Positions 25,084 to 27,453 of a stretch of DNA of 64,000 nt are shown here, one piece after another (positions within the stretch are counted from its first letter, which is position 1; each line of letters begins with the position of its first letter). The notes beneath the pieces are model-generated. The model had not been told where the DNA came from, searched no databases, and saw nothing but the letters and a program-made list of their open reading frames with translations. The translations under genes and the position numbers were made by a program. The stretch lies in NCBI GenBank assembly GCA_016839805.1, contig JAEOTO010000015.1:32001-96000 (forward strand). Direction: 5' to 3'. This stretch comes from Candidatus Hermodarchaeota archaeon (GTDB lineage: Archaea; Asgardarchaeota; Hermodarchaeia; Hermodarchaeales; Hermodarchaeaceae).

Positions 25084-25249
25084 GGATGCCGGTATAGGAG
25101 TCCTTATAGAGTTTCACTCCATATTGGGGCTGCTTCTCTTAGATGGGCGGAGATAACGAGAAGCTATTGGAAGTATGGTCGCATTGGCGGGATTGTCACA
25201 TGCCACCCAGCTGTTGACGATTCTTCTAGTCTCCGCCCCCCGCCATTTT
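25084..25249 (+). ncRNA. Candidate multi-pseudoknot structured RNA
   Basis: Perfect pairings GGGCGGAGA/TCTCCGCCC (9 bp), GCTTCTC/GAGAAGC (7 bp) and TGGCGGG/CCCGCCA (7 bp), plus G-U-containing stems; ends CCA + TTTT. Confidence 0.55.
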
Positions 25250-25316
25250 CTATAATCTGTAAATTTTTCTAAATCTTATTGTAAATGGTTAACAAAATTC
25301 CATTGAAGGGATTAAT

Positions 25317-26141
25317 GTGCCTGAACTTCCTGATATCCTTCTGCTAGCAGAAAGCATGAACAAAGCATTAGTTGAAAAGATAATTTTCGATTCCAAGGTG
25401 AACCAGCCCAAAGTCTTGAACTATTCTAAATCCACATTTCAAAAGCGTGTTAAAGGACGTTGTTTTCAGGGGTTTCGTCAACGAGGGAAATGGGTGATTA
25501 GTTATTTAGATAATAAATGGATGATTGCATTCAATTTGGGGATGGGGGGTGAACTTCGACTTCATTGGTCCGTTGAGACACCAGATCCAAAACGAGAAAG
25601 AATCATCTTCTTCTTCGAAAACGGTGATCAACTCTGGGTGCATTTTTGGTGGTTTGGACATGTTCACCTCATTAAACCCGGAAATGAAGCAAAACACGCA
25701 CAATTAGGTACACTTGGTATTGAACCACTTAGTGATGCATTTACATCAGAGGTTCTCGCTTCGATACTTCAAAACAAAAAGGGGCGCATCAAAAGTTACT
25801 TGCTGGACCAAAAGTTCATTGCAGGTATAGGTAATGTTTACGTCCAAGATATTCTCTGGTATGCTCGCCTTCACCCTAATCGTAAAGCCAATACACTCAA
25901 TCTAGTTGATATTGAACGCCTCCATGAAGCTATCCAGCACGTTCTTCAGGAGGGCATTCGTTGGGGTCCTGGTCCCGGAGAGCAAGATGTATGGGGGCAA
26001 CGAGGTCAGTGGGGAAAAAAACCAGGATGGCCACAAATAGCCTACAGGACAGGAAAATCCTGCCCTACATGTCAAACAGTCGTGGAAGAGGTACGGATCG
26101 GGAGTACCACGAGTTATATCTGTCCGCATTGTCAAAGCTAG
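25317..26141 (+). CDS. Fpg/Nei family DNA glycosylase
   Basis: N-terminal PELP, RGK, LGM.G, H2TH motif LLDQ..IAGIGNVY, C-terminal CPTC/CPHCQ zinc finger. Confidence 0.9.
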   Translation: MPELPDILLLAESMNKALVEKIIFDSKVNQPKVLNYSKSTFQKRVKGRCFQGFRQRGKWVISYLDNKWMIAFNLGMGGELRLHWSVETPDPKRERIIFFFENGDQLWVHFWWFGHVHLIKPGNEAKHAQLGTLGIEPLSDAFTSEVLASILQNKKGRIKSYLLDQKFIAGIGNVYVQDILWYARLHPNRKANTLNLVDIERLHEAIQHVLQEGIRWGPGPGEQDVWGQRGQWGKKPGWPQIAYRTGKSCPTCQTVVEEVRIGSTTSYICPHCQS

Positions 26142-26164
26142 ACTCACATGCAGGTTTGATTTAT

Positions 26165-26617
26165 ATGACGAAAAAAGCAATTCAAGACCAGTGGTCTGAA
26201 CTTGACTCGATGTGTTGGGGTTGTGGAAGAAACAATAAAAATGGGTTGCAATTAAAGAGCTACTGGGAGGGGGATGAAACTGTTGCCACGTGGCATCCCC
26301 AACCATATCATTTAGCCTTTCCAGGAACCCTCTGTGGGGGAATTATCGCCAGCTTAATTGATTGCCACAGTACAAACACCGCTAACGCTGCAGCAAATAA
26401 AGAGGCAGAGAAAGAGTCTGGGTCAGATCCACCAAAGGGTTATGTTACAGGTTCATTGTTTGTGAAATACCTCAAACCAACTTCTGTGGACAAACCAGTC
26501 ATATTACGTGCCAAAGTCAAGGAACGTAAAGGACGAAAGATTACAGTGACATGTTCGCTTTACTCAGAAGGTATTGAAACGGCACAGGGTGAAGTAGTTG
26601 CCATACAATTTTTTTAG
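26165..26617 (+). CDS. PaaI/hotdog-fold thioesterase
   Basis: CWGCG..N..GL, GGIIASLIDC and VT..L.V.YLKP motifs; ATG at 26165 (the longer ORF overlaps the Fpg gene). Confidence 0.85.
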   Translation: MTKKAIQDQWSELDSMCWGCGRNNKNGLQLKSYWEGDETVATWHPQPYHLAFPGTLCGGIIASLIDCHSTNTANAAANKEAEKESGSDPPKGYVTGSLFVKYLKPTSVDKPVILRAKVKERKGRKITVTCSLYSEGIETAQGEVVAIQFF

Positions 26618-26685
26618 CTAGAATTTATGAATGAGCAAGGAATAATGAGGAACACAATTGGCAGAATCAGGCTGGTGATGAGCTT

Positions 26686-27453
26686 TTGAAGAAACGCATT
26701 CAACCACATATACGACTCGGTGAAGGTGACGTCGCGAAAATCGTGTTTATTGCAGGAAATCCCGACCGCGTCCCTAAAATTGCAAATAAGATGAAAGATC
26801 CTGCTGAAATTGGAAACTATCGCGGTCTCGTATCGTATCGCGCTTTTACTCCCGAAGGTGTTGAGGTTACAGTAGCTACCTCGGGGATGGGTACGCCCTC
26901 TACCCACATTGTCATCGAAGAACTCCATAAACTAGGTGCTGAAGTATTTATTCGGATTGGAACCTGTGGCGGTGTCAATCCCAAACTAAAAACTGGAGAT
27001 GTCGTTGTGGCGACAGGTGCAGTTCGTGATGAACTCACTAGCTCCAATTATGCCCCTATGGAATACCCGGCAGTCGCAACTCCAGAATTATATTTAGCCC
27101 TCCTCAAAGCGATTCAAGAGCTTCTTCCTACAACTCGCATTCATGCAGGCCTTGTTTGGTCAACTGATATCTACTATGATCATCGTGAGGGAGATATCTT
27201 AGGGCGGTGGACACGGGCACGCGTCCAATGTGTGGAAATGGAATCCTCATTACTTTTTGTCTTTGCACAAACCCGTGGAATCCATGCTGGTTCAATCTTA
27301 GCATGTGATGGCAACCTCCATTCCCACCAGAAAGGTGAACAGACCGATGAGACAGAACAAACCGGAGAACAGAACCCCCTCTTAGTGGAAGCCGTGTCTA
27401 AAGAAACTGAAGCCGCAATCAAAGCCGTTGATGAATTATACGCATCAAAATAG
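26686..27453 (+). CDS. udp: Nucleoside (uridine-type) phosphorylase, PNP/UDP family
   Basis: QPHI, G.PDRV, GMG.PS..I..EEL, RIGTCG and VEMES motifs. Confidence 0.8.
   Translation: MKKRIQPHIRLGEGDVAKIVFIAGNPDRVPKIANKMKDPAEIGNYRGLVSYRAFTPEGVEVTVATSGMGTPSTHIVIEELHKLGAEVFIRIGTCGGVNPKLKTGDVVVATGAVRDELTSSNYAPMEYPAVATPELYLALLKAIQELLPTTRIHAGLVWSTDIYYDHREGDILGRWTRARVQCVEMESSLLFVFAQTRGIHAGSILACDGNLHSHQKGEQTDETEQTGEQNPLLVEAVSKETEAAIKAVDELYASK

Follow-up and report, generated by a model that had tools for sequence, protein, structure and literature searches.

A candidate structured RNA family upstream of fpg in the archaeal genus Candidatus Hermodarchaeum

What occupies the gap between an alpha/beta hydrolase gene and fpg in a Candidatus Hermodarchaeum genome, and is it an RNA in its own right or the leader of the genes that follow? 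Within the window, by which we mean the whole 64,000-nt stretch of DNA analysed here, the original prediction placed a nested-pseudoknot RNA at positions 25084-25249 of this gap, with a 3' tail tiled by three long-range pairings and ending in CCA. All of the pairing strings on which it was built are present in the window at the positions assigned to them, as is a TTTT run at 25246-25249, and the region is indeed a GC-richer island, albeit a modest one (GC 0.48-0.52 versus 0.31-0.45 nearby). Considered as a lone sequence, the last 23 nt were fully tiled by blocks of at least 7 nt in 2 of 3000 dinucleotide-preserving shuffles of the 166-nt span, in a test devised post hoc after the data had been seen; a perfect stem of at least 9 bp arose in 21 of 500 shuffles, and the folding energy of the whole stretch is mildly unusual (z = -1.9 on the + strand and -1.5 on the - strand). 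The lone sequence is by itself only suggestive, and it is conservation that sets the element above chance. As detailed below, comparison across genomes supports the core of the prediction, namely a strongly conserved, structured RNA on the + strand without a match in Rfam, with the pairing between a hairpin loop and the tail as its defining feature. On balance, and judging from comparative sequence analysis, we read the element as a structured small RNA that is specific to the genus, transcribed on its own and a member of a previously undescribed family.

Extent, distribution and conservation of the element

Throughout, G000 denotes the genome carrying the window, other G numbers denote further genomes, and L numbers and M042 denote fetched loci and variants. 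Matches from blastn and covariance-model searches in 10 other genomes of the genus, plus metagenome contigs, delimit a conserved RNA of about 107-114 nt at 25132-25245 on the + strand. The conserved block reaches from GCTTCTC (25132), where its onset is sharp, to CCGCCC (25238), and is followed by a semi-conserved CCCGCCA with which the otherwise variable 3' flank opens in most variants. The span originally proposed holds from 25132 to about 25245 and fails over its first 48 nt (25084-25131), which comprise promoter and variable spacer. A hairpin assigned to this part (AGTCC..GGGCT) falls within the non-conserved spacer that separates the TATA box from the RNA start, and is not a feature of the RNA.

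The element is single-copy in G000, and was identified by blastn and a covariance model (R1, built from the blastn hits) in 10 of 14 other species-level genomes of Candidatus Hermodarchaeum. As the four genomes without the element also lack the fpg locus (the G005 contig stops inside the hydrolase gene), the element is present wherever the locus was assembled, i.e. in 11 genomes including G000. R1 was run at the level of the family, at that of the class (19 genomes) and, for the phylum, on 150 genomes, and it matched this genus (g1) only. Specifically, no element was found in the four genomes of the sole sister genus, where pattern and model searches gave chance-level matches alone, nor by blastn and R1 in about 130 other genomes sampled from the phylum. 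A pattern scan of metagenomes, together with contigs fetched through Fpg homologues, added six more distinct variants and one partial copy, all from the same clade; beyond these genus-level variants the metagenome scan returned three bacterial matches attributable to chance. A scan of genome contigs with the 5' hairpin pattern likewise gave 10 archaeal matches, all in the same genus, and 31 bacterial matches by chance, while none of 54 chance pattern matches in viral contigs was confirmed by the model. Within the searches made, the RNA thus appears to be confined to one genus of Hermodarchaeia. One further metagenome locus, L047 (JABAOF010006527.1), joins the 5' flank and 5' part of the RNA of G007 to the 3' part and 3' flank of G014; as a recombinant or an assembly chimera, it was left out of the independent variants.

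Pairwise identity among the RNAs ranges from 0.66 to 1.00, with a median of 0.82, whereas four-fold degenerate sites of the adjacent fpg gene are only 0.24-0.36 identical in most species pairs, indicative of saturation, and the encoded proteins of those pairs share 64-78% (Fpg) and 52-60% (hydrolase) identity. The RNAs of G000 and G013 are identical despite a four-fold identity of 0.58. Given that some 110 nt remain near-invariant beside saturated neutral sites, the RNA is expected to be doing something sequence-specific. This pattern also bears on the suggestion that the region acts at the level of DNA, either as a decayed inverted-repeat mobile element or as a protein-binding regulatory region. 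Inverted repeats of 10 bp and 7 bp are present, as such a suggestion would have it, but the element is single-copy, syntenic and under strong purifying selection across 110 bp, which excludes a decaying mobile element; no copies occur in viral contigs or the other genomes searched, and the G.U-type substitutions seen in the variant alignment preserve pairing on one strand only, namely the + strand that had been favoured from the outset. We therefore consider a DNA-level element very improbable.

Predicted promoter and transcript ends, and downstream genes

Gene order around the RNA is fixed, running from ABC-2 permeases and an alpha/beta hydrolase through the RNA to fpg, a 4HBT thioesterase and a PNP-family phosphorylase. 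A gap of 70-85 nt, or of 188 nt in G007, separates the RNA from fpg downstream, and all 14 complete loci read hydrolase, RNA, fpg, 4HBT and PNP on the same strand. The order fpg, 4HBT thioesterase and PNP/UDP-family phosphorylase, found at 25317-27453 of the window, is kept in every RNA-bearing genome and is not retained beside the Fpg homologues of other lineages (L160, L163 and L164).

Such a fixed neighbourhood brings forward the main alternative to a separate gene, namely that the fpg-thioesterase-PNP operon begins with a cis-acting 5' leader, either a riboswitch or an attenuator, in which the pseudoknot would serve as the sensor. Its folding state would set whether transcription continues into fpg or terminates at the oligo-T run, which lies 0-25 nt downstream. 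We regard this as unlikely on present evidence, though still deserving of serious weight. In its favour, a highly conserved, 'aptamer-like' core gives way to a variable stretch with a T run beyond it, and in G001 and G008 a small hairpin and U5 come after the RNA. The products of the operon, Fpg and a member of the purine nucleoside phosphorylase family, also have purine chemistry in common; a purine, whether free or damaged, would make a sensible ligand. Set against the co-occurrence in 14 of 14 loci, all of these loci are orthologous, so that the association of RNA and fpg counts only once in evolutionary terms. Outside the genus, the element is lacking at Fpg orthologues of 60-65% identity, and none was detected at the loci examined that carry Fpg homologues of up to 65% identity in other contexts.

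Evidence for a separate gene comes from the sequences flanking the RNA. A TATA-like box, CTTATAGAG (25103-25111, + strand), starts 29 nt upstream of GCTTCTC, and every homologue carries a TATA-like word (ATAAAC, TTATAG, ATTTAG or ATATAAT) at the same position. Directly 5' of this box and outside the RNA lies an upstream promoter element of the type TGCCG-n-AAT-GGGAACCC (25087-25103, + strand), which occupies the BRE position and aligns in all members of the genus. In five genomes this element was found to be unique to the locus; its use as a regulon motif was rejected on these grounds, the lone near-match lying inside a coding gene. Two stable-RNA genes of G000, those for SRP RNA and RNase P RNA, similarly possess a TATA box near -30 and end in CC|TTTTC, as does the RNA itself in G000. 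A T4 run directly adjoins the RNA end in G000, G012, G013 and G011, resembling stable-RNA genes and speaking against a leader, and in other species the first run of at least four T lies 0-25 nt beyond the conserved block. The run at 25246-25249 is the probable terminator in G000. Together, the fixed TATA-like box at -29 and, in G000, an end like those of the SRP and RNase P RNA genes would favour a stand-alone gene. From promoter geometry we infer a 5' end near 25132; the 3' end is uncertain.

The sister genus provides a further view of this promoter. In G015 and G016, a homologous promoter (about 20 of 26 positions matching, by eye) lies downstream of the orthologous hydrolase gene, with an identical 29-nt spacing to (G/A)CTTCTCT (GCTTCTCT..GGG, the GGG falling within a few nt). 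Since the sister genus has the same promoter at identical spacing, transcription likely starts at about 25132. At the two loci in question, L153 (G015:C33, about 2290-2380) and L154 (G016:C186), the promoter reads TTGCCtAAAaGGaAAggC-ATTTAGA, with 29 nt to GCTTCTCTctaGGG, which runs straight into GAGGAG and the TTG start of a predicted substrate-binding-protein gene (an assignment made by eye). In the sister genus, retention is limited to the promoter and the first ~16 nt, the body of the RNA being absent. The comparison shows the ~100-nt RNA body as seemingly peculiar to Candidatus Hermodarchaeum, and suggests that a 5' UTR was expanded in this genus or else that the body was deleted in its sister. 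That the homologous promoter appears to drive an mRNA directly would count against a stand-alone gene and for a leader.

The interval between the RNA and fpg (25250-25316 in the window) contains, in G000 and its homologues, a conserved T-rich box, CTTTTT(T)ATT, with AGAATAC some 12-15 nt further on and then a purine-rich Shine-Dalgarno sequence; the start codon of fpg is GTG or TTG in most species. The T-rich box and AGAATAC are probably the fpg promoter, and the box may double as a terminator of the RNA. A second promoter-like block between the RNA and fpg, with conserved spacing, would favour a stand-alone gene over a leader, but the T-rich box could equally be read as a regulated terminator, which would tell the other way. 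A leader is further disfavoured by the finding that no conserved alternative pairing joins the core to the T run.

Predicted fold and its variation

The RNA is plausibly a pseudoknot of three helices (P1, PK and P2), a fold compatible with the variants and not proven by covariation. The first of these helices, P1, is the hairpin originally noted between GCTTCTC (25132-25138) and GAGAAGC (25158-25164); this pairing, GCUUCUC with GAGAAG(U/C), comprises 7 bp and can form in every variant. The 5' strand is invariant, and the closing pair alternates between G.U and G-C in step with the last base of the 3' strand, GAGAAG(C/U). The 5' strand of P1 is followed by a linker, L1 (25139-25144), of 4-6 nt that vary in sequence and length. 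Inside the P1 loop lies the 5' strand of PK, GGGCGGAGA(U/C) (25145-25154), which was correctly predicted to pair with the tail: GGGCGGAGA at 25145-25153 and TCTCCGCCC at 25230-25238 form a perfect 9 bp, or 10 with a U.G. In RNA form, the helix GGGCGGAGAC/GUCUCCGCCC of 10 bp can form in all variants; its 3' strand, (G)UCUCCGCCC, occupies 25229-25238, 100% of the cells of the 5' strand are paired with it, and GGGCGGAGA(C)/(G)UCUCCGCCC is either invariant or G.U-compatible throughout, the three variable columns of the 5' strand each changing from G-C or A-U to G.U.

The core of P2 is the third pairing confirmed from the original prediction, TTGGAAG (25167-25173) with CTTCTAG (25223-25229). Its strands extend to UUGGAAG(GAU) at 25167-25176 and (AUU)CUUCUAG at 25220-25229, and the helix, UUGGAAGGAU/AUUCUUCUAG, extends to as many as 10 bp in most species, G000 having 7 bp, and abuts PK with 0 intervening bases. 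P2 opens into a three-way junction whose two apical hairpins all variants can form. Hairpin A (25175-25196) has the stem (U)GGUC/GAYC(A), in which the U/C change converts G.U to G-C, and encloses a 10-nt loop, such that it reads (U)GGUC-GCAUUGGCGG-GAYC(A). Hairpin B (25200-25221) pairs AUGCCA with UGGC(G)AU around a loop that begins with an invariant CCCA. A minimum-free-energy 'rod' for this inner domain was considered and dropped; the two-hairpin junction is preferred since the two most divergent variants, G011 and M042, fold only in the branched form. The stem originally proposed at ATTGTCA (25192-25198) and TGACGAT (25215-25221) is possible in G000 and G013 only, where a UUG insertion and a G-to-A change yield AUUGUCA/UGACGAU (25192-25221) as an alternative to hairpin B; the other species have AUGCCA/UGGC(G)AU.

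Support for these pairings was assessed on a 14-sequence alignment. Overall, 97% of cells are paired, versus 45-56% in a control with partners slid. The six columns that vary in P1, PK and hairpin A and at column 93 of hairpin B exchange G.U for G-C or A-U with the pair kept, and whenever only one side of a pair changes in P1, PK or either apical hairpin, the pair is preserved. The PK pairing is kept in every variant, and across the helices 0 of 35 pairs change on both sides, an outcome that three more variants (17 in total) left unaltered, the 17 variants being too alike to provide such covariation. P2 is restored in a slipped register in G007 (UUUGUA/UACAAG) and is imperfect in G006 and L158, with three U.U mismatches. 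In hairpin B, the bulged G is A in M042 and absent in G011, and in L041 an inserted U pairs with it to give AUUGCCA/UGGCGAU. The parts that vary freely are the tail, the linkers L1 and L2, the stretch joining hairpin A to hairpin B, and loop B in its 3' half. The helices are largely fixed, and loop A (GCAUUGGCGG, 25181-25190) and the CCCA of loop B are invariant across all variants. The lack of conservation in the junction linkers L1 and L2 is unlike a ligand pocket, another point against a leader with a sensor.

The tail, CCCGCCA (25239-25245), is a lineage-variable extension that complements UGGCGGG of loop A, which had been predicted as a 7-bp pairing between TGGCGGG (25185-25191) and the tail. 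This pairing is present in G000, but it does not extend to the family: the full 7 bp occur in 10 of 17 variants and 6 bp in two (G013 and L159), whereas in five (G006, L158, G007, G011 and M042) the tail is cut to CCC or less, with the UGGCGGG partner unchanged everywhere. The tail pairing is a non-defining feature, and there is no conserved CCA end. With respect to the tRNA mimic envisaged on the basis of that end, the 3' GCCA is missing from the same number of variants (5/17) and altered in two, and ARAGORN found no tRNA features.

The strand order of these helices, P1a-PKa-P1b-hairpin-PKb, matches the order P1-P2-P1-P4-P2 of HDV, inviting the reading of a self-cleaving or otherwise catalytic RNA with a nested P1/PK topology and a large inserted domain. 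A 7-bp P1 at the predicted 5' end, with a G.U closing pair in most variants, adds to the likeness with HDV-like ribozymes (HDV_ribozyme, CPEB3 and drz), which share the nested double-pseudoknot order and a 7-bp 5' P1 closed by G.U. The catalytic core of these ribozymes (P3/L3/P1.1 and J4/2), however, has no counterpart in the Hermodarchaeum RNA: only 3-6 variable nt separate PKa from P1b, leaving no room for P3/L3/P1.1, and zero nt lie between P2 and PKb, hence no J4/2 with a catalytic C, on which basis an HDV-like ribozyme was rejected. Together with the lack of any ribozyme family among Rfam matches at E up to 10, and with single-copy occurrence without linkage to mobile elements, this makes a catalytic RNA highly unlikely.

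An open reading frame overlapping the inner domain raises the alternative of a small protein gene. Starting from AUG at 25176, it would encode MVALAG(L)SHATQLLAILLVSAP.., a hydrophobic peptide about 25 aa long; as in type I toxin systems, the mRNA could be a highly structured one. In 9 of 15 variants the frame (MVALAGSHATQLLAILLVSAP..) runs for 24-40 codons without a stop, the insertion in G000 is 3 nt, and two changes in M042 are synonymous. In 6 of 15 variants (G001, G008, G003, G004, G011 and L162), on the other hand, indels of +1 or +2 nt break the frame beyond codon 8-12, with nucleotide conservation undiminished downstream, and the wobble positions of the first codons are invariant next to saturated four-fold sites in fpg. 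Because frameshifts leave conservation intact and wobble positions do not vary, constraint acts on the RNA and not on a peptide. The hydrophobic core also carries non-synonymous changes, with Thr replacing Ala in G000 and Gln replacing Leu in G007, and a properly spaced Shine-Dalgarno sequence is lacking, so that we give a small protein very little credence.

Beyond the observed conservation, promoter geometry and fold compatibility, a working scheme for a stand-alone RNA may be outlined. Transcription would start about 29 nt downstream of the BRE/TATA promoter, at or near GCUUCUC (25132), and end at the oligo-T run 0-25 nt past CCGCCC. The transcript would fold into a compact three-helix pseudoknot, in which the 7-bp P1 hairpin presents GGGCGGAGAC in its loop for pairing with the 3' GUCUCCGCCC (PK, 10 bp), and PK would abut a P2 of 9-10 bp capped by the two short hairpins A and B. 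Loop A (GCAUUGGCGG), presumably exposed, and the CCCA of loop B would be the likely working surface for a protein or RNA partner.

Relation to known RNAs and biological meaning

Searches against Rfam 15 at the gathering threshold gave 0 matches in the whole window. The original prediction had proposed Rfam as a check on novelty. Three homologues were also searched, and no family match was obtained; at E values up to 10 they gave scattered, mutually inconsistent weak matches to eukaryotic and viral families. Resemblances to 16S helix 45 and the 16S 3' end, U6, Y RNA, ZTP, twister and SRP Alu were not borne out by Rfam. A divergent SRP RNA, RNase P RNA or 5S rRNA was rejected as an identity, all three being found above threshold on contig C22 of G000. 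The C box RUGAUGA and D box CUGA of box C/D RNAs occur in 0 of 15 variants, and a TnpB/IscB omega-RNA was dismissed given that no tnpB or iscB gene is adjacent and that the element is single-copy in G000.

ARAGORN detected no tRNA in the window, and none at the element with the intron option either. Manual inspection for an intron-containing, permuted, Sec or Pyl tRNA revealed no T-loop or D-loop and no conserved candidate anticodons, the sole UCA or GUC triplets falling in the variable junction. As a separate observation on this genome, ARAGORN run with introns lists 34 tRNAs in G000, many with non-canonical intron positions, and none for Asp, Lys, Phe or Pro.

Potential RNA partners were examined through complementarity. 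A 13-mer complementary to loop A and its flank, ATCCCGCCAATGC, occurs twice in G000 (C15:24178 and C48:24761, with ~0.07 expected), in coding regions and in opposite senses relative to the genes; with strands inconsistent in this way, a trans target was rejected and the matches put down to chance. Complementarity to the 16S rRNA locus of G006 showed no excess over shuffled controls. That locus, L165 (G006:C71:619-4212, minus strand), is the sole full-length copy of this gene found in the genus, and because it spans 3.6 kb for a model of 1478 positions it must carry large insertions or introns. The 16S matches in G004 are fragmented and lie on a short contig, and the G000 assembly is without 16S and 23S rRNA genes.

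In the SAM-II and preQ1-II riboswitch aptamers, and in the P1-loop pseudoknot of the pistol ribozyme, a hairpin loop pairs with a 3' segment to form an H-type pseudoknot. The Hermodarchaeum RNA shares with such RNAs the pairing of a 5' hairpin loop with a distal 3' strand, abutting helices that can stack, and a compact size (~110 nt), but differs in having a 60-nt branched domain in place of loop 3, non-conserved linkers and an archaeal host, without similarity in sequence or covariance model in Rfam 15. The stable RNA genes of G000 (SRP, RNase P and 5S) resemble it in their TATA near -30, their CC|TTTTC end and their high conservation relative to neighbouring genes; those RNAs, however, are universal, whereas the Hermodarchaeum RNA is found in a single genus and is unrelated to them in sequence and structure. 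To our knowledge, restriction to a single genus is unusual for the RNA of a stable RNP, and it counts against a stand-alone RNA of that kind.

Bacterial 8-oxoguanine and purine riboswitches possess a three-way junction with two apical hairpins and lie upstream of purine or DNA-damage genes. The Hermodarchaeum RNA is similar in its junction, in apical loops that could touch, and in the purine and DNA-damage chemistry of the genes downstream, but it does not match the Rfam models, its junction strands are too short, and it carries the additional P1/PK module. A bolder form of the leader reading, which we offer as speculative and improbable, would make the element the first riboswitch-like sensor in Asgard archaea, in which a pseudoknotted aptamer senses a free or damaged purine and gates read-through into fpg-thioesterase-PNP. 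By analogy, a candidate ligand might be 8-oxoguanine or FapyG released by Fpg. Such a sensor would be of recent origin within the genus, its proposed precursor being a simple 5' UTR of which the sister genus still shows the promoter and the first 16 nt.

Asgard archaea are the closest prokaryotic relatives of eukaryotes. We know of very few structured RNA families in archaea beyond the universal ones, and of none that is Asgard-specific. The RNA described here represents a candidate new family without a detectable relative, with an unusually clear signal of purifying selection and a narrow distribution. Were it a true regulator of the fpg operon, it would tie RNA sensing to DNA-damage repair in archaea; were it a true component of an RNP, it would point to a lineage-specific machine not yet known.
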